DNA of 39,898 nt, taken from a virus. Its lineage: Duplodnaviria; Caudoviricetes. Under the pieces are notes generated by a model, which ran no database searches, was not told where the DNA came from, and worked only from the letters and a program-made list of their open reading frames with translations. The position numbers and the translations under genes are program-made. Within the stretch, counting starts at the first letter, position 1. Each line of letters begins with the position of its first letter. Of this stretch, positions 15,801 to 27,319 are shown one piece after another. The stretch spans positions 1 through 39,898 of IMG/VR virus record IMGVR_UViG_3300027804_000105. One strand, written 5' to 3'.

Positions 15801-15826
15801 AATGCAAGCCGCAGCTCAAACTACCT

Positions 15827-16096
15827 ATGAAAACACAGGAAACGAAACCGGAAATGACGGCTCCATTGGCTCTGGCGCCTTGTTCGGCCGCAGCAGCAAC
15901 AATGTTCGGCCGCACGATCTTGGTTGGAGACTACGTGCATGTGCGATTCCCGTGGGGCCGTTTTTACGGAGAAATGGAGGGCACCGTGCTGGAGCTAAAA
16001 CGGTTACGGTGCGGCAAGCACGAGGGGCGCCTTCCGTGCGGTTTGTGGTTTCAAGAATCAGATGAGCTTTTGAATCACAAGCCGAACTCCAAATGA
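15827..16096 (+). CDS. Cassette protein (SH3/KOW-like beta protein)
   Basis: Starts MKTQETKPEM upstream of half site A; ends ...KPNSK* across attC B. Confidence 0.65.
   Translation: MKTQETKPEMTAPLALAPCSAAAATMFGRTILVGDYVHVRFPWGRFYGEMEGTVLELKRLRCGKHEGRLPCGLWFQESDELLNHKPNSK
15866..15888 (-). repeat. attC half site A (R''/L'' arm only)
   Basis: TTGGCTCTGGCGCCTTGTTCGGC; no partner arm found upstream. Confidence 0.7.
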
Positions 16097-16172
16097 TGAA
16101 CCACGCCCAACCAACGCGGCTACGCTTCGCCCCGCCGGCTACGTGGGCGTTGGTTCTGGCGACTTGTTAGTC
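16081..16172 (-). repeat. attC site B
   Basis: GCCGAAC...GAACCACGCCCA / TGGGCGTTGGTTC (one extra T)...GTTAGTC. Confidence 0.85.
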
Positions 16173-16185
16173 ATTCTTCCGAACG

Positions 16186-16317
16186 ATGAAAAAAGCAAAA
16201 AACATGGATGAGGCATGGAAAATCCAAGAAACCTACGAAGGCAAGCCGCACGGCTGGGTGCAGTGGAATGGGACGGTGCTACGCCGAGGAAAAAGACTCT
16301 ATGAAACCAACCGATGA
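16186..16317 (+). pseudogene. Probably truncated cassette gene
   Basis: MKKAKNMDEAWKIQETYEGKPHGWVQWNGT... stops after 43 aa where the left arm of attC C is missing. Confidence 0.45.
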
Positions 16318-16660
16318 AAATAGCGCGGCGGCACAGGCCGTTGCCACTGGGGACTTGTTCTGCGCTTCGCTCGAATGGCACAAGGGGCCGGCCGAGGGCG
16401 GACAGGGCTCCGCAGGAAAGAACGATGACGGAGTTCCGCAGTGGTGGGACGGCGACCGCCTGCTCATCATCGTGGAGACCTGTGCCGGGCGTGAGATGGC
16501 CGTCGTGGACATCAGAGCGGACCAAGAATACTTCGACGTGCGCGATGCCAGCACTGGCGACACCTATGATGCGTGGGAGCCGGAATGCTGGTCGTGGTGG
16601 GCAAAACTCACAAAGCACAATCTTCCGCAGAACGTCAAAGATGAGCCACGCCGCAAATGA
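16301..16660 (+). CDS. Cassette protein, hypothetical
   Basis: Start MKPTDENS; ends ...PQNVKDEPRRK* inside attC D. Confidence 0.7.
   Translation: MKPTDENSAAAQAVATGDLFCASLEWHKGPAEGGQGSAGKNDDGVPQWWDGDRLLIIVETCAGREMAVVDIRADQEYFDVRDASTGDTYDAWEPECWSWWAKLTKHNLPQNVKDEPRRK
16338..16363 (-). repeat. attC half site C (R''/L'' arm only)
   Basis: CCGTTGCCACTGGGGACTTGTTCTGC; its core GTTCTGC is complementary to GCAGAAC at 16627. Confidence 0.7.
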
Positions 16661-16715
16661 GTAACGACACCACCAACCAGCAACCGTCGGCTATGGCTCT
16701 GGCGCCTTGTTCGGC
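16627..16715 (-). repeat. attC site D
   Basis: GCAGAACGTCAAAGATGAGCCA...TGGCTCTGGCGCCTTGTTCGGC. Confidence 0.85.
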
Positions 16716-16721
16716 ATTCTT

Positions 16722-16964
16722 ATGGGCAAAAGACTACCAGTAAACGCGCGCTTTATCGAGCAACCAGCCGAGCTAGTGCTGTGCCTTTCATGCGCGTGGC
16801 AAGGCGATTGGAACTCCCTCAAAACCCAACCATCGCGCCGTGCGCACGCAACCGACGGCCGCGCTAAGTGCCCCCGTTGCAAAACGCCGGGACACTTCAA
16901 AAGGATTGGGCCGAACGGTCGGAGTGAGCCAACGCCGAGGACAGAGCCATTACTTCACCCCTGA
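16722..16964 (+). CDS. Cassette protein, Zn finger (CLSC...CPRC)
   Basis: ATG at 16722; two CxxC pairs; ends ...GPNGRSEPTPRTEPLLHP* inside attC E. Confidence 0.65.
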   Translation: MGKRLPVNARFIEQPAELVLCLSCAWQGDWNSLKTQPSRRAHATDGRAKCPRCKTPGHFKRIGPNGRSEPTPRTEPLLHP

Positions 16965-16998
16965 GACTGTCGGCGTTGGCTCTAATCCGTGGTTGGCC
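16910..16998 (-). repeat. attC site E
   Basis: GCCGAAC...GAGCCAACGCCGA / TCGGCGTTGGCTC...GTTGGCC. Confidence 0.85.
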
Positions 16999-17038
16999 GG
17001 CCGTGGAATTGGTGCCCGAAAATATAATCGAAACACGC

Positions 17039-17066
17039 TTGACGGACTAGGCGCAATGCCTAGTGT
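17039..17066 (+). promoter_or_regulatory. Cassette-internal promoter with overlapping palindromic operator
   Basis: TTGACG-16 nt-TAGTGT; inverted repeat ACTAGGC-N5-GCCTAGT at 17046-17064. Confidence 0.6.
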
Positions 17067-17108
17067 GAGTGTGTCGGAGGCAATGACGCCCGAGACACCT
17101 AAACCAAA

Positions 17109-17300
17109 ATGAAAAACGAAATGATCAAAGCGAAGAGCCTCGAAGCCGCCAAAGCCAACGCCCCCGAGGGAACGCGCTTCGTGCATACCGCCTCGGTGAT
17201 GGATGATTGCGGAACGGGCGGCTTCTGCGGCTACTACTTCACCCCCGAGCAGGAGCGCGAATACAACGACGGAATGGCCCGCATGGCGGAGATGGGATGA
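17109..17300 (+). CDS. Cassette protein, hypothetical
   Basis: 63 aa, ATGA-coupled to the HTH gene. Confidence 0.6.
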   Translation: MKNEMIKAKSLEAAKANAPEGTRFVHTASVMDDCGTGGFCGYYFTPEQEREYNDGMARMAEMG

Positions 17301-17491
17301 GCTCCGACGCCTACAAAGCCGAGCGCGAACGGCGCGGCACGCAAGCGAGCGTTGCCGCGCTCTTGCGCGTCGATCCGCAAACAATCTCCCGCCGCGAGCG
17401 CGGGGAAATCCCCATCACCCACGAAGCCGGGCTTGCTCTTCTTTCGCTCCCGAAGAAACGCAAGCGCCCGCTCAGGCCGGCCAACGTCTAA
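17297..17491 (+). CDS. XRE/Cro-type HTH DNA-binding protein
   Basis: GTQASVAALLRVDPQTISRRERGEIPI matches the HTH_XRE pattern; ends ...PANV* in attC F. Confidence 0.85.
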   Translation: MSSDAYKAERERRGTQASVAALLRVDPQTISRRERGEIPITHEAGLALLSLPKKRKRPLRPANV

Positions 17492-17608
17492 TATGAGCCA
17501 CGCACCCGAATACAATTGCCCGCCCGTGTGCGGGGAATGCCGCCGAGCGCATCGCGGGCCATGCCAGCCAGACCAGCCCGGTGCGTTGGCTCTGGGGACT
17601 GGTTGGAC
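17479..17608 (-). repeat. attC site F
   Basis: GGCCAAC...GAGCCACGCACC / GGTGCGTTGGCTC (extra T)...GTTGGAC. Confidence 0.85.
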
Positions 17609-17795
17609 TGCGCCGTCCGCCATACCCCCTGACGTGGCCCGTAAGATCATTGCGGCCCGTGATGCTATCGCCAACGAAGACACGTCCGAAGCGTGGCATC
17701 AGCTCTATTCCATCGCCGATCCATCGTTTGAGAGCGTGACCCCGTGGGCGATTCTCGAAGCGAAGTCCAACGTCAAAGATGAGCCACGCCCCTAA
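17493..17795 (+). CDS. Cassette protein, hypothetical
   Basis: ATG lies in the attC F arm (MSHAPEYNC...); ends ...KSNVKDEPRP* in attC G. Confidence 0.65.
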   Translation: MSHAPEYNCPPVCGECRRAHRGPCQPDQPGALALGTGWTAPSAIPPDVARKIIAARDAIANEDTSEAWHQLYSIADPSFESVTPWAILEAKSNVKDEPRP

Positions 17796-17868
17796 AATGG
17801 ACACGAATACCACTGACTCTCCGAAAACTCAGGGCAACCCTAGCGTTGGCTCTGGCGCCTTGTTCGGC
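17765..17868 (-). repeat. attC site G
   Basis: GTCCAACGTCAAAGATGAGCCACGC...GCGTTGGCTCTGGCGCCTTGTTCGGC. Confidence 0.85.
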
Positions 17869-18133
17869 GGCTTGGATGCCTCGTCGGCCTCTGTGGCGGC
17901 GTATGCCGTGACGGTGCGTGGCGCTGCTCAACCTGCGGAAAAACTCTCAATTACCATGACGACAAACCCTGACGGGAAACCCTATATCCACAACGCCGAG
18001 CAATCGGAGGCCGCGAAGTCATCGTCGCGCTTTCGCTGGAAAAGCGCGGCCTTGGCCGGTTCGTCTCTGAGCGCGCCGAGTATCGCCTCCCCGGCGACCG
18101 CCGCATCGTCCACCATGGTGGACACTTCTACAC

Positions 18134-18355
18134 ATGAGAGCATACCACACCACAGAAAGCCTCGGCATCAAAGCCCTTGAGCGCCCCGCCTATGAGCGCG
18201 GCGACTTCCCGCGCTACCTTGTCACTGTGGACGGCAAGACCGAGACCGTCAAAACGCCCCGCGCCCTTCAAAAGCTACTAGGCTCGATCTACTCCGAACG
18301 ACCGGAGGTGTTCGTGAACGCTGGCAACGGAATCAGCATAAACTTTGACCAATGA
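18134..18355 (+). CDS. Hypothetical protein
   Basis: 73 aa, ATGA-coupled to the next gene. Confidence 0.6.
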   Translation: MRAYHTTESLGIKALERPAYERGDFPRYLVTVDGKTETVKTPRALQKLLGSIYSERPEVFVNAGNGISINFDQ

Positions 18356-18639
18356 CCAACGCCGACCTCGAAACCATACGCCGCGCCATCTCCGAGGTGT
18401 GCGCGGCCTACGATGAACCGGACAGCCCCGAGGCTCTATCCTGCGCGTTCTATCAACTGCGCCGTGTGCGCGACTACGTGCTCCCGCGCTGCGCTCCGAC
18501 CGGGCGCAAAGGCGGGCTGTCCAAGTCGCCCGCGTTGCAGGCTGCGCGGCGTGCCAATGGTGCGAAATCCAAAGGACGCCCCCGCAAGCCGGTTGACGCG
18601 GCACGCAATGGCCCTAGGATCGCGTTTAGACCAATTTGA
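18352..18639 (+). CDS. Basic putative DNA-binding protein
   Basis: C-terminal GRKGG..KS....AARRANG....GRPRK motif, frequent in phage proteins. Confidence 0.6.
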   Translation: MTNADLETIRRAISEVCAAYDEPDSPEALSCAFYQLRRVRDYVLPRCAPTGRKGGLSKSPALQAARRANGAKSKGRPRKPVDAARNGPRIAFRPI

Positions 18640-18823
18640 GGTGGTCGTTGATGGGAAGACAGGGGTTGCTCGTGGACCCCGTAGAATTGGACGGCATTTG
18701 CGTCCCGATTGGTCTTCGGGGTGGGCTTCGGAGTAGGAGGCTGGCTCAAAGTGGCTAGAATTTGAAGGAAAGTGCCATTTTGGGCTTGCAAACATGGGTG
18801 ATAGTATTCATTCCTTCAATCAA

Positions 18824-18926
18824 GCGGTATCGGAGCCGCGCAACAACCCATTTCGGTAGGCTTAATTGCCCCGACCGATGGCCCAGTGGCGTGAAACTCC
18901 GATCTCCCCACTGGGCCTTTTCTTTT
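18824..18926 (+). ncRNA. Candidate three-hairpin regulatory RNA ending in a terminator
   Basis: Three stems; ATCGGAG (18829-18835) is complementary to CTCCGAT (18897-18903) in the loop of the last stem GGCCCAGTGG/CCACTGGGCC, followed by a T-tract. Confidence 0.5.
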
Positions 18927-19262
18927 GGCCCACGCAGAACCCAAGGCTGCGTTAAGCTACAGAGCACTTGGGGGCTTTAAGCGGCTTAACAGTCAGCAGA
19001 GCTAGATTGAACCACAAATCCTAGAGTCCCTTTCACGGAGTTTCAGGCGTCTAGGTCAGGATACGAGGCGACAGCAGACGGCATACAGCGACGGGTTCAA
19101 TCGAAAGCAAGGAGAGGTCCTCTTTGCGAATCAGCTCTCGGCAAATCGAAGTTTTCCTTAGCTTTCCGGCTCAGGAAACTCCGCTATGCACCGGCACCAG
19201 CGACGGTAAGGCGGAGGGAGTGATAGGGAGTGTTAATAAATCAATGTTAAAGGCGAACAACT

Positions 19263-19829
19263 ATGAGTAGAATGAGCGAATCGGAGGCTTACAAGTTAGC
19301 CAAGGAGCTTTTTAGCTACGATCCCGAAACTGGGATTATTACTCGCATTGCAGCTCCCGTAAAGAGCAACGGCAGTAGGGATAACCGAGGGGTTGGCAAG
19401 CCAACTGGATCGCTCAGTTCGCAAGGGTATCTACAGACCTGCATTTTTAGAAAAAGGTTTTCCAACCACCGGCTCGCATGGTTGCTACAAACCGGTGCGT
19501 GGCCTAAACAAGAAATTGATCATATCAACGGGGTCAAGACCGACAACCGTTGGTGCAATCTTCGGGACGTAAGTCGGATTGAAAACATGGCCAATCGGCA
19601 TAAGAAATGGGGAAAGAATAAGGGCCTTCCCATTGGGATTACTGAACAAGTCCATAAGGGTGGGTATCGTTATTTTCTGGTGACTCATGCTCGAAACCAC
19701 GTTTGTAGGGCATCTACTCGCTCTACCCTTGACGAAGCAATAGAACTGCTGCAAGCATTCCGCGACGAACTCAGATCACTTTCTGCCACAACGGCGGATT
19801 ATCAAAACAACCAACAAGTCAGCAACTAA
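19263..19829 (+). CDS. HNH (homing-type) endonuclease
   Basis: YDPETG, HRLAW and EIDHINGVKTDNRWCNLR motifs; lower GC. Confidence 0.9.
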   Translation: MSRMSESEAYKLAKELFSYDPETGIITRIAAPVKSNGSRDNRGVGKPTGSLSSQGYLQTCIFRKRFSNHRLAWLLQTGAWPKQEIDHINGVKTDNRWCNLRDVSRIENMANRHKKWGKNKGLPIGITEQVHKGGYRYFLVTHARNHVCRASTRSTLDEAIELLQAFRDELRSLSATTADYQNNQQVSN

Positions 19830-19841
19830 CCAATACCAACT

Positions 19842-20426
19842 ATGTGTTCACTCATTTTGACCGAAACCAAGAAGAAGTCCGATCCTACGCCCAGGGGCCT
19901 GCATCAAGTGGTCTGCTACGGCGTCATTGACATCGGCACGCAGAAGTCGGCCAATCCGGCCCATCCCGACAAGCGGAAGGTGCTTCTGCTGTTCGAGCTG
20001 CCCCACGAAACCAAGGTGTTTGACGGCAAAGAGGAGCGTCGGGTTATGTCCCGCTCGCTGGCAATTTCAATGAACGAAAAGGCCACCCTGTTCAAGTTCC
20101 TGTCCGGTTGGCTGGGGGAGAAGCCCAAGACCGGCTTTGACCTCCGCAGCCTGATTGGGAAGAACGGACAGGCCAACGTGGTTCATAGCCCCAGCAAGTC
20201 CGACCCCAGCACCATCTACGCCAACCTGGACTCGGTGGTTGCGCTTGCCAAGGGTATGCAGGCCGTTGCGCCCAGCCGCGAAACCATCACCTTCACCATC
20301 CCGCCCGGCGGCCCCATCGACATCCCGAGCTACATGCCTGAGTGGATTGCCGATAAGATTCAGGAAAGCGCCGAGTTCAAGGCGCGGGTTGGGGCGGCGG
20401 CGGCGGTGAAGATGGGCGGGGAATAA
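19842..20426 (+). CDS. Phage replication/SSB-like protein (resembles NGO0469 family)
   Basis: H..VCYGVIDIGTQ, FELP, SMNEKATL and MPEWIADKI.ES.E motifs. Confidence 0.6.
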   Translation: MCSLILTETKKKSDPTPRGLHQVVCYGVIDIGTQKSANPAHPDKRKVLLLFELPHETKVFDGKEERRVMSRSLAISMNEKATLFKFLSGWLGEKPKTGFDLRSLIGKNGQANVVHSPSKSDPSTIYANLDSVVALAKGMQAVAPSRETITFTIPPGGPIDIPSYMPEWIADKIQESAEFKARVGAAAAVKMGGE

Positions 20427-20641
20427 AAGCGAACACTGACAGTTGAGGGGTGTCCCCTTCAAAAGCACAACACGGGGTCCGGGTTGAAGTCCCGGCAGGC
20501 GCCCAGCGCCGAGCTAATGCAGCACCCCGTTTCAATTTTGACATTTCCCTCCCGGCCGAAGCCTTACGCTTGACGTAGGATAGGAGACCGGCTCCGTAGG
20601 CACGGGCGGGACTAAACCAGCAAACACAGAAAGACAAACCT

Positions 20642-20953
20642 ATGATAAGCAACACGGCGGCAAAATGCCTCAACGAATCCCCGCATGAATCATTCATGCG
20701 CTGGTTCGAGACCAAAATGACCGAGCTTGAGAAGAACAACTTCTTGGTTATGCCCAAGCAAAAAACGTCTCAAGCGGTGGGCTTTGCGAAAACGGAAAGG
20801 CCGCGCACGCCGGCTACGATGGCAAAACTCGCCAAGGCCGAAGAGATTGTTGCGGCCAACCCCAACATCAGCCGCAAACGGCTTAGTAAGCTCACGGGGG
20901 TATGCGACAAGGTTCTCCGTGCCAAGTTCGGTAAAGCCGCCTATTTCCGATGA
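20642..20953 (+). CDS. Putative DNA-binding protein (C-terminal HTH)
   Basis: NPNISRKRLSKLTGVCDKVLR. Confidence 0.55.
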   Translation: MISNTAAKCLNESPHESFMRWFETKMTELEKNNFLVMPKQKTSQAVGFAKTERPRTPATMAKLAKAEEIVAANPNISRKRLSKLTGVCDKVLRAKFGKAAYFR

Positions 20954-21135
20954 ACGAGTATCTCAACGAATCTATCCGGCTGCGTAGCGAGCTGATCGCC
21001 AGCAATGCCCTTCTGCGCGACGCCGAGGCAATCATTGCCGACTTCATGCGCTATTTTCCCGGCCCCGAGTGCCAAGAGCAGGAATCGGTTTGCGACGATG
21101 CCAGGGCTTTCCTGAAGGCTCTCAATGAACGCTGA
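20950..21135 (+). CDS. Hypothetical protein
   Basis: 61 aa, ATGA-coupled. Confidence 0.55.
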   Translation: MNEYLNESIRLRSELIASNALLRDAEAIIADFMRYFPGPECQEQESVCDDARAFLKALNER

Positions 21136-21412
21136 AACAAACAAAGGTGCTTGGACGAAATGGTCCGACGCCAACCACGCTGCTGTCGAAGCAGCGGAAG
21201 CTCTGGCGCCTTGTTCGGCCCTTCGGTGGGCCGTCTTTCCGTGCGGATGGAAATGGGAAATTGCTAGTCTGACGCGCGAAAACGAAACCCCGGTCGCGCT
21301 TTTTGAGCACAAGCACCACGCAGAATCTTTCTGCCGCGAATGGTGGCCGGCCCTCGGCGAAGTGCGCCCTTTGCCGAACACCAAGAGCAGCCGCGGCACG
21401 GCGCAGCCGTGA
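21125..21412 (+). CDS. Cassette protein, hypothetical
   Basis: Reads through half site H (ALAPCSA); ends ...LPNTKSSRGTAQP* in attC I. Confidence 0.65.
   Translation: MNAETNKGAWTKWSDANHAAVEAAEALAPCSALRWAVFPCGWKWEIASLTRENETPVALFEHKHHAESFCREWWPALGEVRPLPNTKSSRGTAQP
21200..21219 (-). repeat. attC half site H
   Basis: GCTCTGGCGCCTTGTTCGGC, identical to the arms of A, D and G. Confidence 0.7.
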
Positions 21413-21437
21413 CGTTGGCTGTCTCGCTTTGTTAGGT
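21373..21437 (-). repeat. attC site I (65 bp, canonical)
   Basis: Minus strand reads ACCTAACAAAGCGAGACAGCCAACGTCACGGCTGCGCCGTGCCGCGGCTGCTCTTGGTGTTCGGC. Confidence 0.9.
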
Positions 21438-21460
21438 GCCTCTTTCTCCAACTCACGAAA

Positions 21461-21823
21461 ATGAAATTCACAGTCTCAAAACGCTTCTCCTTCGAGGCCG
21501 CTCACTCGCTGCCTCAACTCCCTGTCGGGCACAAGTGCCGCAACGTGCATGGCCACTCCTACGTCGTGGAAATCCACGTCGCCGGCCCGCTCGACTCGCG
21601 CGGCTTCGTGGTGGACTACGCCGATCTATCGCTGGCGATGGCCCCAATTATCGCGCGACTGGATCACCAGAATATCAACGATGTGCTCCCGTGCAGCACC
21701 ACCGCCGAAAACCTCGGCGCGTGGATCATGTCGCAGCTCGACAAACACTCAGGGCTGAAACCGCGCGTCTCGCGTGTGGATGTGTATGAGACGGCGAAAA
21801 CCTGCGTGCGCGTGGAAAGATGA
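21461..21823 (+). CDS. queD: 6-carboxytetrahydropterin synthase
   Basis: FEAAH, C..VHGHSY, LDH..IN, TAEN and YET motifs. Confidence 0.93.
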   Translation: MKFTVSKRFSFEAAHSLPQLPVGHKCRNVHGHSYVVEIHVAGPLDSRGFVVDYADLSLAMAPIIARLDHQNINDVLPCSTTAENLGAWIMSQLDKHSGLKPRVSRVDVYETAKTCVRVER

Positions 21824-22473
21824 TGATTCTCGCCGGACAATCCAATCCGCTCTGGCACTACGCCGCTGGCCGCTGGCCGGGTAAGGTGGGGCTACTGCTT
21901 GGACCTGCCTACTTTCGCAAGCAGGCAATCCGTCCGTGGCTGACCTACGTGCTCGACAACGACGCTTTCTCGGCTTGGAGCAACGGCACGGAATGGAATC
22001 ACGCCGCATGGACTGAGATGCTAAGGCGCGCGATGCTCAACAAGCACAAACCTGCGTGGGTGCTCGTGCCGGACGTTGTGGCGGATAAAGCGGCAACGCT
22101 TGCAAGCTGGGACCGGCACGCTCCCGAGGCCGCGAGCTACGGCTGGCCGCTCGCCTTCGCCGTGCAGGATGGAATGACACCGGACGACGTGCCGGAAAAC
22201 GCACAGGTGATCTTTGTCGGCGGCACAACCGAATGGAAATGGCGCAGCCTGCCGATGTGGTGTGCGAGATTTCGGCGGGTGCATGTGGGGCGCGTCAACA
22301 ACATCGAAAAAGTCTATCACTGCGAAGACATGGGCGTTGAGTCCGTGGACGGCACCGGATGGTTCAAAGACCCAACGCGCGAAGACAAACTTCCCGCCCT
22401 GCTTTCTTGGTTTGAAGGCGAGAGGCGCAACGAAAAACAAATGGCGTTGATTGAGGCACCTAACGTTAAATGA
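21820..22473 (+). CDS. Putative TGT/DpdA-like TIM-barrel protein
   Basis: LDNDAFS, VPDVV, AVQDG, FVGG..WK, HVGRVN and SVDGTG motifs; ATGA-coupled to queD; ends ...APNVK* in attC J. Confidence 0.6.
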   Translation: MMILAGQSNPLWHYAAGRWPGKVGLLLGPAYFRKQAIRPWLTYVLDNDAFSAWSNGTEWNHAAWTEMLRRAMLNKHKPAWVLVPDVVADKAATLASWDRHAPEAASYGWPLAFAVQDGMTPDDVPENAQVIFVGGTTEWKWRSLPMWCARFRRVHVGRVNNIEKVYHCEDMGVESVDGTGWFKDPTREDKLPALLSWFEGERRNEKQMALIEAPNVK

Positions 22474-22585
22474 TGAGCCACGGAGCGGGAAATGAAACAC
22501 CCGCCCGTAGCTCAAACTACCTATGAAAACACAGGAAACGAAACCGGAAATGACCGCTCCGTTGGACTCTGGCGATTTGTTGGGC
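22458..22585 (-). repeat. attC site J
   Basis: ACCTAAC...GAGCCACGGAGCGG / CCGCTCCGTTGGACTC...GTTGGGC. Confidence 0.85.
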
Positions 22586-22879
22586 GCGGCCAAGAATGCA
22601 ATCAAGGGGTGGGCCGAACTCACCGATACGACGCACCCGCGCGCCTTCGCTCGCATGAGCGCCGCGATTGAAAAACTCTGCGATGCAATTGAGGAGCACG
22701 AATCCGCCGAAGCCGGGCGTGTCGTGGACGCCATGACGCCCGAACAGGTGGATGCATACCTCGTGAGCATGGGCGTGAATCTCGACGAGATGCGTGCGCA
22801 CACCGAACAGATGCGGCAAAAACTGACCGCGCGCTTTTCTTCGCCCAACGTCGCGGATGACCGAGCCGCAACCAAGTAG
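22523..22879 (+). CDS. Cassette protein, hypothetical
   Basis: Starts MKTQETKPEM in the attC J loop; ends ...SPNVADDRAATK* in attC K. Confidence 0.7.
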   Translation: MKTQETKPEMTAPLDSGDLLGAAKNAIKGWAELTDTTHPRAFARMSAAIEKLCDAIEEHESAEAGRVVDAMTPEQVDAYLVSMGVNLDEMRAHTEQMRQKLTARFSSPNVADDRAATK

Positions 22880-22933
22880 GCCGCACTTCGCCCTGCGGCG
22901 AACGTGCGGCTTCGGTCTGGACGCTTGTTCGAA
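22843..22933 (-). repeat. attC site K
   Basis: GCCCAAC...GACCGAGCCGCA / TGCGGCTTCGGTC (extra T)...GTTCGAA. Confidence 0.85.
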
Positions 22934-22956
22934 AAGACCGAGCCAATGACTTCCAA

Positions 22957-23247
22957 ATGAAAACCAAAACTCAAATCTGTAAGCTCTGCGAGATATTCGG
23001 CGATGGCCCCTGCTCTCCGAAATGCCTAGAGGCTGCGCAGGAAAAGGTGGCGCGTGCGATCCACGCGGAACACAACGCGCATGAGGGGCTGGAAACTGCG
23101 TGGATCGAGCTACACCATTTCCAGCGGGAGAAATATCGCGGCAAAGCATACGCCGCCCTCGTGGCTCTGGGAGCGCCAAAGAAAAAGGCCACGCCGAGGC
23201 GGTCGAACGTCCCGGATCAGCAACGCGCAGGAGCGAAGGAGAAATAA
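22957..23247 (+). CDS. Cassette protein, Cys-rich N-terminus
   Basis: CKLC...CSPKC; ends ...RSNVPDQQRAGAKEK* in attC L. Confidence 0.65.
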   Translation: MKTKTQICKLCEIFGDGPCSPKCLEAAQEKVARAIHAEHNAHEGLETAWIELHHFQREKYRGKAYAALVALGAPKKKATPRRSNVPDQQRAGAKEK

Positions 23248-23459
23248 ACAATGCCCACGAAAAACACCATAGACGACGCCAGCCATCAAGAATGGTCCAA
23301 AGCCGGACAGATGCCGACCGAGCAACAGCGCCGCGACTGGTATGCAAAATCTGCGAAGATCGAAGGCGACGCCTGCGTGGGCGCTGGACTCCCGAGCGGA
23401 ATCGCGCCGTGCAAACCGCAGGCTCCGTCAGCGCGTTCGCTGTGGCCGGATGGTTCTCT
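23202..23459 (-). repeat. attC site L (very long loop)
   Basis: GTCGAACGTCCCGGATCAGCAACGCGC pairs with GCGCGTTCGCTGTGGCCGGATGGTTCTCT about 200 nt away. Confidence 0.7.
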
Positions 23460-23673
23460 TCCGGTCGTGGAAGCCGAAGCTCTGGAACGCAAATGGTCCG
23501 AAGACGTGCAATGGTGGCGAGACAGAGCGAAGTCCCAAATCGAAAAAGGACACCCACTACTCGCGGAACTATCGTCGCAGTCCGCAGACGTGCTATCGGG
23601 CTGTGCCGCGCAGCTTGGCCGACTGATAGCACAGTCGAAATCGCGCCAGCCGGAAGAGAACAAGGAGGTATGA
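23251..23673 (+). CDS. Cassette protein, hypothetical
   Basis: AAGGAG ribosome-binding site and ATG inside the attC L loop; ends ...PEENKEV*. Confidence 0.7.
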   Translation: MPTKNTIDDASHQEWSKAGQMPTEQQRRDWYAKSAKIEGDACVGAGLPSGIAPCKPQAPSARSLWPDGSLPVVEAEALERKWSEDVQWWRDRAKSQIEKGHPLLAELSSQSADVLSGCAAQLGRLIAQSKSRQPEENKEV

Positions 23674-23704
23674 CAACTTTCAAAGTTAAAAAACTAACTC
23701 ATTT

Positions 23705-24508: not shown

Positions 24509-24734
24509 ACGCAAACCCAAGCCAGAAGAAAAGCCGGCGGTTGTGGAACGAGCAAGGCCCGTAAGCGGACTGCCGCTGGACTTTAGCCGCTGCTGGAACG
24601 ACGAGTGCGTCAAGGGAAGCACCTGCCTGCGTCGCATTGGAGCTATGGACGTAGGCGCCACCGTTTTCTTCAAGCCCAACCTAAACAAAGATGGTGCCTG
24701 CGAGCATTTCATTCAGGACAAACGAAATAAATGA
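24498..24734 (+). CDS. Small Cys-rich hypothetical protein
   Basis: GTG start; D.SRC....C.....C.R...C pattern; ATGA-coupled to dnaB. Confidence 0.55.
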   Translation: MAAKRKPKPEEKPAVVERARPVSGLPLDFSRCWNDECVKGSTCLRRIGAMDVGATVFFKPNLNKDGACEHFIQDKRNK

Positions 24735-27319
24735 CCAAAGCCAAAACAAACCTCCCCCATTCCGAAGAGGGTGAACGGTCTCTCATAACGCACGTCCTTT
24801 TGGACGGCGCTCCCGCCCTCTGCAAATGCTTTGAGGGCAAAATTACGCCGGAGGTGTTTTACGACCCGGTTTGCCAGAAGGTATGGAAGTCGATTTGCTG
24901 GCTGCACAAGCAAGGACACCCCGTTGAGCTTGCCGTGTTAGCAGAGGAGCTTAAAAAGGCCGGCAAACTGGACGAGCTAGGGGGCTACGAAGCTCTTACC
25001 ACCGTCACAAGCGGTCAGGACATCAGCAAAAACCTCGACTACTGGGTAGCTCGGCTGCGTGAGCTTTACGTCCTCCGCGAGCTTCATGGGGCTGCCACCC
25101 GCACCGCCGAAAAGGCTCTGGCCTACTCCGGCAGCGTCGAAGACTTCGTTTCCGAGACCCACCGCATCCTCTCCATCCAGCACGCCGCCCAAAAGGCCAT
25201 GACGCTGCCCGAGGCGGCTACCTCCGCCCAAGAGCAATGCTTACGAATCCGAGGCTCTGAACCGCTTACGGAAGAGGACAAGGGACTGTCTTGGGGTTGG
25301 AAAGACTGGGACGACCGTTTCGGCTGCGCCAAGGCCGGCGAACTGCTGGTTTTGGGAGCCCGTCCAGGATGCGGAAAGAGCAGCATTGCCCGCCAAGTGG
25401 CATGGGAATGGTCAAAGGGCGGCAAAATCCTCTTATTTTCAAGGGAAATGCCCGTAGAAGGGCTTCCTGTGCTCTTTGCCCAAGCCCTTTCCGGCAAGTC
25501 ATGGAAGGAATACCGCAACCGGAGGCTTCACGACAAGGACATGGACGAGTTTGATGACGCCTTGGCTGCCGTGTCCCGCAACCCAAACATCCTCGCTTTT
25601 GACAAGGACCGGACGCTTTCGCAGCTCATGGCCCGTATTCAGGCTTGCCGTCAACTTATGCCCATCCGTGCTGTTGTCGTGGACTACCTGCAACGCTACG
25701 ATCCGCAGCAAGAGCGCGGGGAAACCCGCGACATTGCCATAGGTCGGTTTAGTATGGCGCTCAAGGATGTTGCCGTTGACCTCAAGATTCCGGTTTTGCT
25801 TCTGGTTCAGGTCAGCCGAGGGGTGGAGAAAGAGGATCGGGAGCCACGTCTTTCCGACATCCGAGAGTGTCTTTCCGTAAAGGACACCTACGTCTTCAAC
25901 AGCCAAGGCATCTGGCGCAACACCGAGGCCCCCATCGCCACCGTCGGCCTGTCTCAAGGCGGCAGCTTGGTTGCCTCCGAAAGCCGTAACGCTCCGCGAG
26001 AGGATGCGCCGGAAATGATTCGGATAACGCTCCAGAGCGGCCGAACCATCACCTGCACGCCCCGCCATGCCATCAAAACCGACAACGGGTGGACGATTGC
26101 CGAAGCCATCACCAAGGAAAGCGCCATTGCCTGCGCCCGCCGCATCCCTGCCCCCCGCAACTGCGAATACTTCCACGTAAGCCGCTGGATGGGGTGGATG
26201 CTTGGCAACGGCTCCGGCGTCGGCAGCCAGTCGCCATCCTTCATCACGTCATGCGAGGTTGTGGCCCAAGAGTTCTGCAAACAGAATAATGCGCTGTTTG
26301 GCTTCTACCCGAAGCCTCATCGCCACAAGTGCCAGAAGGTGTTTCAATACGACATCACGAAGCATACCGTTCGGACGCCCGAGGGCAATCCGGCTACCAA
26401 CTGGATGCGGAAGCATGACATGTGGGGACGCCGCTCATGGGAGAAGCGCATCCCCCAATGGTTTTGCGAGACAGCCGACAACCAGAGCCTTGCCGAGCTT
26501 ATCGCCGGCCTTTGGGAGACGGACGGGCGTGTCATGCTCAAGCCCCGCCCCTCCCTGTCCTACTCCACCACTTCCGAGCACATGGCTTGGCAGGTTGTTT
26601 GGGCGCTCCTTCGCCTCGGCATCTACGCCGCAATTGAGCCCGGATACATGGGAAAGAAGGCAAAGCATCCTTGTTTCAAGGTTTGTATCCGCGTAGCCGA
26701 AGAAATAGCGCGGTTTGCCGCCAAAATCCCGCTCATTGGCCGCAAGGGCGACTTGCTACGTCAGGTTGATTCAACCCGAACCAGCAACATCGCAGGCTCC
26801 CGTTTCAGCGTAGGCGTTGGCAAACTCGTTGAGTCCATCAGGAAACGCTACGGCCTTACCCATGCCCAAATCGGCTATCGCTTTCAGGGCAAGCGTATCT
26901 CCTACGATGATTTGATGCGAGTTTGGGCGAACCTCATGGACAGAGGCATGATGAATGAACACATCCAAAGTCTTGTCGGAGAGGACGTGTTTTGGGACAA
27001 GCCGCGTAAGATTGAGCGCGTGGCCGGCGGACCGGTGTTTGATCGGGTTGTCCCCGAGCACCACAACTTCGTAGCCAACGGGGTCATAGTTCACAACTCG
27101 GGCAACGTGGAGCAGGATGCAGATCGCGTCATATTCATCCACGCACCTACCGCCCTTCCAGACGGCAGCACTCAAGACCTAAACGATGGCGACTTGCGAC
27201 GAATCCACACCAACCTTATCCAAGCCAAAGGCCGTGGAGAGGGAAGAGACAAGTTGACAATGTTCTTCAATCGCCCAATAACCGCTTTTGAAGAGGAACG
27301 AAAGGGATTGAAACTATGA
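24731..27319 (+). CDS. dnaB: Replicative DNA helicase DnaB with intein
   Basis: LPHS.E.E N-domain, GARPGCGKS, VVDYLQ, Q.SR, P.LSDIRE|intein|SGNVEQDAD, K.R. Confidence 0.95.
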   Translation: MTKAKTNLPHSEEGERSLITHVLLDGAPALCKCFEGKITPEVFYDPVCQKVWKSICWLHKQGHPVELAVLAEELKKAGKLDELGGYEALTTVTSGQDISKNLDYWVARLRELYVLRELHGAATRTAEKALAYSGSVEDFVSETHRILSIQHAAQKAMTLPEAATSAQEQCLRIRGSEPLTEEDKGLSWGWKDWDDRFGCAKAGELLVLGARPGCGKSSIARQVAWEWSKGGKILLFSREMPVEGLPVLFAQALSGKSWKEYRNRRLHDKDMDEFDDALAAVSRNPNILAFDKDRTLSQLMARIQACRQLMPIRAVVVDYLQRYDPQQERGETRDIAIGRFSMALKDVAVDLKIPVLLLVQVSRGVEKEDREPRLSDIRECLSVKDTYVFNSQGIWRNTEAPIATVGLSQGGSLVASESRNAPREDAPEMIRITLQSGRTITCTPRHAIKTDNGWTIAEAITKESAIACARRIPAPRNCEYFHVSRWMGWMLGNGSGVGSQSPSFITSCEVVAQEFCKQNNALFGFYPKPHRHKCQKVFQYDITKHTVRTPEGNPATNWMRKHDMWGRRSWEKRIPQWFCETADNQSLAELIAGLWETDGRVMLKPRPSLSYSTTSEHMAWQVVWALLRLGIYAAIEPGYMGKKAKHPCFKVCIRVAEEIARFAAKIPLIGRKGDLLRQVDSTRTSNIAGSRFSVGVGKLVESIRKRYGLTHAQIGYRFQGKRISYDDLMRVWANLMDRGMMNEHIQSLVGEDVFWDKPRKIERVAGGPVFDRVVPEHHNFVANGVIVHNSGNVEQDADRVIFIHAPTALPDGSTQDLNDGDLRRIHTNLIQAKGRGEGRDKLTMFFNRPITAFEEERKGLKL
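25868..27097 (+). mobile_element. Intein (410 aa) with LAGLIDADG homing endonuclease
   Basis: Begins CLSVKDT, block B TCTPRH, LAGLIDADG-like GWMLGNGS and LIAGLWETDG, ends HNFVANGVIVHN followed by Ser. Confidence 0.95.

Follow-up and report, generated by a model that had tools for sequence, protein, structure and literature searches.

Two arrays of attC sites in a phage early region

The 39,898-nt genome of a Caudoviricetes phage, virus record IMGVR_UViG_3300027804_000105 (the whole stretch analysed, hereafter the window), carries two clusters of imperfect inverted repeats among its small early genes that resemble attC, the folded site recognized by the integron integrase IntI. The record is of the linear class and 100% complete according to CheckV, with 34-nt ends agreeing at 32 positions, and the sequencing runs containing the phage are freshwater metagenomes. 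Pfam and PHROG scans of 66 open reading frames (ORFs) identified an SU10-type capsid, terminase, DnaB with an intein, an exonuclease and HNH proteins. We found nine complete sites (S1 to S9), three half sites reduced to the right arm (15865, 16340 and 21196) and a terminal core AAC at 23659, all in one orientation, which reproduces the inventory and positions given in an earlier note on this DNA. With a weight matrix trained on phage arms, right arms were confined to the two clusters and to the plus strand, and left-arm scores of 9-12.5 were also scattered elsewhere in the genome; the right arm of S9 (score only 9.3) and the terminal AAC were entered by hand.

The two clusters are confirmed as arrays of Opitutaceae-family attC sites, and the observation is real. 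Inverted R boxes with the AAC/GTT triad were present in all nine sites; beyond the triad, the flanks frequently deviated from RYYYAAC/GTTRRRY, in the phage and in IntI-linked host sites alike. An 18-nt arm pattern taken from the phage retrieved 119 stretches from one-genome-per-species contigs, and about 97 of 118 loci with the pattern belonged to Verrucomicrobiota, mostly Opitutaceae, as counted from record titles. Horticoccus sp. 23ND18S-11 has arrays with dozens of sites built on these arms, starting about 1.1 kb from an IntI above the TIGR02249 cut-off (371 bits), and in six further Verrucomicrobiota genomes full-length IntI relatives (53-72% identity) adjoin such sites. IntI above the cut-off was present in 84 of 201 genomes of the Opitutaceae, in keeping with the earlier proposal of a host IntI, since an integrase of the same family is found in the likely host group. 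A dense array with 42 arms of this attC family was also observed on a contig labelled Paceibacterota (L004), which may be misbinned or reflect a transfer.

A covariance model with covarying stem pairs, built from 27 host sites and zero phage sites and used in place of IntegronFinder, matched eight of the nine phage sites with E values from 6.8e-15 to 2.4e-5, the plus strand being the bottom strand in all. The best match outside the clusters had an E value of 0.32 and the half sites gave 0.13-2.4, so the covariance check suggested earlier succeeded for eight sites with our own host-built model. The ninth, S9, was missed, although 9 nt of its flank are complementary to that of the terminal core. 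No Rfam match was obtained over the sites, and a generic, family-blind scan for AAC..GTT hairpins separated the sites poorly from shuffles, so the case rests on the other tests.

According to Nivina et al. (PMC5027507), attC sites are 57-141 nt long and contain a central spacer in which 5-6 nt stay unpaired; on the bottom strand two extrahelical bases, one at position 16 (in most cases G) and a T at 23/24, lie opposite the AAC with 6 bp between them. In that numbering, an unpaired T was found at position 16 in eight of nine sites and at position 23 in eight of nine, and the consensus arm has six paired bases between both unpaired Ts, the spacing given there. Base 16 is T rather than the usual G, and likewise in all 27 host sites. 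Gene orientation in the host arrays confirmed the earlier call that the minus strand is the attC top strand. The opposite assignment, with plus as the top strand, was rejected: host genes are found on the strand opposite to it, and no site follows the last cassette downstream.

Cassette ends, reading frames and turnover

The segments between sites have paired ends. The four bases past the GTT of the right arm are complementary to the four that precede the following AAC at all positions in nine of ten segments and at three of four in the other, 39 of 40 bases in total; none of 200,000 permutations reached 39 (mean 21.8), and control pairing across the same site gave 1-3 of 4. In Horticoccus host arrays the ends pair 4/4 in 89 of 90 cases. 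From these base comparisons, we read complementary segment ends as the mark of formerly circular cassettes. Body ends pair over 8-9 nt at 16992-17483, 21431-22462 and 23453-23659, longer than in any of 239 host bodies; runs of at least 7 occur in 3 of 38 phage bodies versus 0 of 239 host bodies, a post hoc comparison in which all three lie in the window. Such long pairing may record how cassettes are made, for example by hairpin correction.

The genes within these segments are inverted relative to bacterial cassettes. In three Horticoccus loci, a top-strand ORF covers more than 70% of the body in 82 of 90 bodies, and the phage cassette genes, QueD included, lie on the attC bottom strand. Instead of a top-strand gene upstream of and outside attC, the classical arrangement, ten of ten segments end in a bottom-strand ORF that enters the next site. 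All ten junction AACs are read as Asn in an ORF of at least 60 aa whose stop codon lies 6-48 nt inside the following site, compared with 16 of 332 other AACs of the early region under the same thresholds (ORF length, and stop within 48 nt), which were set after seeing the data. Six of the ten ORFs start upstream of the right arm, and the frame at GTT varies. An AAC in frame and a stop taken from the neighbouring site are required by a crossover between AA and C (AA/C) of the left arm. Bodies were also curated by hand at 11 phage loci: of 44 in all, 30 end in frame through the AAC (one of them the shadow of a top-strand gene), 8 stop at a TAA overlapping the core and 6 do neither; two bodies with no clear closing AAC were excluded.

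Two-gene cassettes opening with a short inverted repeat were seen at 17040-17075 in the window and in three relatives (L200 1270-1310, L201 1920-1960 and L205 3210-3250); ending in a small regulator-like gene, they are possibly self-regulated modules with their own promoter. An inverted cassette at L205 2362-3135 encodes a probable DNA methyltransferase (a sequence reading with a generic match), which recalls the methylase cassettes that Qi et al. described.

Comparisons with relatives demonstrate that the cassette content turns over at the core. Relatives with 77-95% backbone identity carry different cassettes at both loci, and six loci (the window, L121, L200, L201, L203 and L205) have six different last cassettes. 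In the four loci with the backbone allele of the window, identity resumes at AAC+0 or -1 with no homology upstream, and because these acceptor junctions have only 3-4 nt in common (AAC or AACA), homology cannot explain them. The body following S7 is succeeded by S8 in the window and by the acceptor in L200, its identity ending at AAC+2 and both flanks changing compensatorily; the body common to L201 and L205 behaves in the same way. The S7 protein has 31 homologues; in 16 of them the body ends at the Asn where it also ends in the window copy, and these 17 proteins have 17 different tails, while one loop-coded leader is common to 15 of the 31. The tail of S9 protein homologues changes after the Asn in seven of seven. 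Content changes among relatives map to the AAC core, where the earlier note had placed the expected breakpoints. In two runs, contig depth was several-fold lower over cassettes than over the backbone, with joints and loose ends at arm ends; these data used a likeness under 95 and are only supportive.

The array ends bear marks of decay. H1 lacks its left arm and contains a copy of the S7 loop (95% identical over 61 nt), and in other strains the S4 loop occupies the distal half-site position (joint 15804-17509); we infer a polarity, new at the acceptor and old at the far end. The S1 body appears to have been truncated by an inferred deletion that took the left arm of H2 too. The S5 body has no closing AAC and is apparently truncated near 18020; between 17870 and 18020 it encodes the N-terminal portion of a protein related to the S7 protein but longer (P0017, P0023) before breaking off, and this break would explain why array 1 has no acceptor. 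The last 10-12 nt, coding S-S-P-N, are common to unrelated bodies (window 22838-22849, L121 6288, L200 2678, L205 4019), as if one shell end had been reused.

Half sites and truncated bodies, together with start codons in loops, could also be expected of a frozen relic of a captured host integron whose hairpins were kept as regulatory RNA or terminators. We regard this as exceedingly improbable: the cargo is phage-type and on the strand opposite to host cassettes, Rfam found nothing over the sites, and almost no cassette is common to relatives whose backbones are about 95% identical. The turnover at AA/C among such close relatives already largely refutes it. Taken together, the comparisons indicate that the phage probably uses a host IntI to insert, excise and reorder cassettes built opposite to bacterial ones.

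Table 1 Sites, cassette genes and acceptor of the two arrays (positions in the window; the strand of sites is the attC top strand).
Feature	Position	Strand	Remarks
H1, distal half site of array 1	15809..15888	-	right arm 15865-15888 and S7 loop copy, fused to backbone
Cassette gene	15827..16096	+	start in H1 loop; AAC of S1 in frame
S1 attC site, 92 nt	16081..16172	-	
H2 half site, right arm	16340..16363	-	flank pairs with S2 left flank
Cassette gene	16301..16660	+	across H2 arm, end in S2 left arm
S2 attC site, 89 nt	16627..16715	-	left arm identical to a Horticoccus chromosomal attC
Small Cys-rich cassette gene	16722..16964	+	weak Zn-ribbon match; end in S3 loop
S3 attC site, 89 nt	16910..16998	-	
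Two-gene body	17109..17491	+	63-aa protein of no assigned function and 64-aa XRE-type helix-turn-helix protein, the latter ending in S4
S4 attC site, 130 nt	17479..17608	-	
Cassette gene	17493..17795	+	start in S4, end in S5
S5 attC site, 104 nt	17765..17868	-	sites about 90% identical on other bodies in L121 and L201
H3, distal half site of array 2	21196..21219	-	decayed right arm
Cassette gene	21125..21412	+	across H3, end in S6
S6 attC site, 65 nt	21373..21437	-	resembles short host class
Two-gene body	21461..22473	+	QueD-like synthase 21461-21823; phrog_15826 protein 21820-22473, whose end lies in S7; body ends pair over 9 nt
S7 attC site, 128 nt	22458..22585	-	hybrid: widespread loop and right arm of own body
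Cassette gene	22523..22879	+	start in S7 loop; homologue tails change after core-AAC Asn
S8 attC site, 91 nt	22843..22933	-	
Cassette gene	22957..23247	+	end in left arm of S9; body ends like those of a cassette with different cargo in L205
S9 long attC-like site, 258 nt	23202..23459	-	loop codes about 60 N-terminal residues
Last cassette gene	23251..23673	+	terminal AAC in frame
Fixed acceptor	23655..23680	-	core AAC 23659-23661, upstream of exonuclease gene

No homologue was found for the S2 protein, and S2 had no real match among 50,697 records of cultured phages. Outside the arrays, the DnaB helicase gene (24731-27319) contains a LAGLIDADG intein, and about 1.2 kb of this region (25866-27098) is missing in the relative L203. 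A stretch of about 500 nt at 18744-19260 has no long ORF, contains inverted repeats and is 90% conserved in L121, with no match in Rfam.

Integrase, acceptor and a second exchange route

In the mechanism that we propose, the plus strand would fold as the attC bottom strand and be cut at AA/C of the left arm, and the cassette unit would consist of left arm, loop, right arm and gene body. Each cassette would supply a start codon, located in the loop or directly behind the arm, and borrow its stop 6-48 nt inside the following site, so that in any cassette order the proteins would stay intact and merely gain a different short tail. The entry point of new cassettes would be the fixed double-stranded acceptor (AAC 23659), which would be attG-like rather than an attI, and distal sites would decay into half sites joined to the backbone. 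The genes would be expressed by early transcription of the phage on the plus strand and not from the integron promoter Pc, which would be unneeded because the genes face the acceptor. A consensus promoter scan showed promoter-like sites to be no commoner than chance; two RNA runs contain pieces of the phage, in contigs that reveal neither strand nor expression level.

According to Loot et al. (bioRxiv 10.1101/2022.09.11.507474), IntI inserts cassettes at double-stranded sites consisting of a GWT core only, and it can excise at nearby sites so that flanking DNA is moved (attG, and single attC sites lacking an integrase, SALINs). The phage acceptor fits the GWT-only attG class as described there, but it is reused: unlike the attG sites and SALINs of that account, one site has been used repeatedly in the phage lineage, with antisense-oriented phage genes as cargo. 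The six host integrons have one attI spacer consensus in common, and the acceptor was rejected as a host attI since its sequence differs from it. The acceptor (23659-23680) starts like the top-strand start of an attC arm, as does a chromosomal insertion site in the genome G207 (L210 1863); it may be what is left of an attC arm in the opposite orientation.

The difference from host attI could also mean that another tyrosine recombinase, of the host or of a helper element, acts on the sites and on the acceptor instead of the chromosomal IntI. IntI-like genes with 45-47% identity to the Horticoccus IntI do occur on two viral contigs (L135 3483-5031 and L145 6896-8440, split in the latter), 550 nt from an attC of this family, and could be phage-borne integrons or host DNA. 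We consider such a recombinase highly unlikely, as the arms match, exactly or almost exactly, those of arrays adjoining bona fide IntI, IntI is common in the family, and IntI1 accepts GWT secondary sites (Loot et al., bioRxiv 10.1101/2022.09.11.507474). No phage-encoded recombinase was found with PF00589, PF00239, IntI tblastn, Pfam/PHROG (66 ORFs) and NCBIfam (27 ORFs), many ORFs having no annotation; these searches uphold the earlier statement that the phage has no recognizable tyrosine recombinase. The phage contains neither intI nor a host-type attI, and is thus not the carrier of a complete integron.

Crossover of the bottom strand alone is insufficient to account for all exchanges, since loops are swapped on common bodies. 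One and the same site, from AAC to GTT+6, lies on different bodies (the S5 type in three phages, the S7 type in four), and among the seven S9 homologues four have the same leader and end with other cargo and three the same body with another leader. A second route, probably exchange by homology or microhomology within bodies and at the conserved right arm, would swap loops and cargo, and would allow ordinary phage genes to enter the shells of existing cassettes. The simplest cause is homologous exchange in the arms, and top-strand IntI crossover could give some of these swaps.

If such exchange were the only process, the sites would be host-integron-derived sequences now serving as mere short repeats for homologous recombination by phage exonuclease and single-strand protein, with IntI not involved at present. 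The arms are indeed 20-nt near-identical repeats, like the boundary repeats of phage mosaicism; some loop swaps have crossovers inside the right arm (S7 versus L200; a loose end at 17595), a PD-(D/E)XK exonuclease gene adjoins array 2, and several sites fold poorly. Repeats of this kind would not leave acceptor junctions with just AAC or AACA in common, end pairing with compensatory change would be purposeless with no circular or folded intermediate, and the unpaired Ts are retained at the positions read by IntI. We therefore judge this explanation unlikely, and use of the host IntI remains the reading that we prefer. The interpretation in the earlier note is supported to that extent; it overlooked the inversion of the genes and their reading through the sites, the difference between the acceptor and a host-type attI, and the second kind of exchange at the right arm.

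The origin of cassettes can be followed in the QueD and phrog_15826 pair. Homologues of the 21820-22473 gene occur at 40 viral loci, many of them near-duplicates. The arm matrix found sites at gene ends in 0 of these 40, a search that other attC families would escape, and the covariance model found one site-bearing locus, L186, with a further weak match (E 0.07) in L177 away from the gene. L186 is a separate inverted cassette, in which the homologue, another gene and QueD stand in a different order and QueD reads the AAC in frame. L163 has the same QueD-first pair, its QueD 90% identical, with an ordinary gene upstream and no arm. The arrangement of these loci suggests that phage genes were packaged into cassettes twice. 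P0022, P0024 and P0025 were dropped as unpackaged ancestors of the S7 gene, because P0023 has the same C-terminus with an arm-coded N-terminus.

The relative L121 carries two cassettes in host orientation. For one, a 62% homologue lies in a chromosomal cluster of two cassettes, in an Opitutales genome with no IntI above the cut-off; the other had no homologue in 301 genomes. The window cassettes had no match in the host loci fetched, so the earlier suggestion of cassette exchange with host integrons holds for one example, in this relative, and not for the window itself. We see about even chances that Verrucomicrobiota phages run a cassette economy of their own on the host integrase: a pool of inverted, self-starting, frame-locked cassettes, made afresh from phage genes in attC shells, which would enter at an acceptor dedicated to them in the phage and mix with cassettes of the host type.

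Several observations weigh against the use of a host IntI. The host sites were initially found with a phage-derived pattern, so the similarity test is partly circular and the likeness partly built in; the link to IntI is independent. S9 (258 nt) lies outside the 57-141 nt range, the remaining eight sites measuring 65-130 nt. The attC fold is the minimum-energy structure in only about five of nine sites, and the plus strand is clearly more stable than the minus strand in S6 alone, with no general bottom-strand advantage; the folding of the plus strand proposed in the earlier note thus turned out attC-like for these five or so and poor for some sites. The acceptor does not match the host attI consensus, both bodies common at the DNA level have differing upstream loops, and the same loop stands on several bodies. 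Of the 17 tails of the S7 protein family, four are only 1-3 residues long and may be contig ends, and two are nearly alike. The excised circles and junction reads anticipated earlier did not appear, no exact circle joint being found in the contigs of eight runs, where rare forms are dropped. The host was deduced from attC sequence alone, with no prophage or spacer link found; host links consisted only of 23-30% capsid matches in 5 of 301 Opitutales genomes and of short DNA matches in 17 of 301 family genomes. Finally, 0 of 46 phage bodies match a cassette in 118 host loci, save one generic methylase match.

Relation to known integrons and significance

Integrons have been regarded as bacterial tools and, lately, as stores of anti-phage genes.

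The earlier note's view of integrons as rarely phage-borne understated the prior art, as phage clusters of attC sites lacking an integrase (CALINs) have been published. Qi et al. 2023 (PMC9892861) reported 17 CALINs with 2-4 sites each in 10,705 phage genomes; IntI1 recombined five of six tested phage attC sites, and use by host IntI was proposed. Those CALINs, for example in Tetrasphaera phage TJE1, are likewise attC clusters with no intI in a phage, and we found the bottom strand of TJE1 attC1 to be opposite the genes, that is, in the bacterial orientation. In contrast, the present phage has nine sites in two arrays, bottom-strand genes coded through the sites, a fixed acceptor and turnover among relatives. 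We found no paper on inverted, coded-through phage cassettes, subscription journals being thinly covered, and the Dryad annotation of PMC9892861 may show orientations.

Integrons in Verrucomicrobia were noted by Cury et al. (10.1101/030866). The sedentary chromosomal integrons of Opitutaceae, such as that of Horticoccus sp. 23ND18S-11, share the arms, the unpaired Ts and the end pairing with the phage, but differ in having intI, a conserved attI and top-strand genes between sites; their loops form long stems, whereas phage loops are often coding. With at least two attC sites in the same orientation and no intI nearby, the phage array behaves as integron cassette arrays do and can be classed as a CALIN, its cassettes departing from the classical orientation and neither intI nor attI being present.

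The phage thus appears to apply the recombination chemistry of integrons to its own variable early genes, in a design that keeps rearranged genes translatable. This read-through design explains the recurrent common N- and C-terminal peptide ends of otherwise unrelated small phage proteins. The origin of new cassettes is named as an open question in PMC8618304. The family described here provides short cloneable substrates, a defined acceptor, the matching IntI of a named Opitutaceae isolate and a natural series from free gene to cassette, which make the question of cassette formation directly testable. If the cassette economy is true, it would be the first natural setting for watching new integron cassettes form, and a channel through which genes pass both ways between a lytic phage and the integrons of chromosomes.

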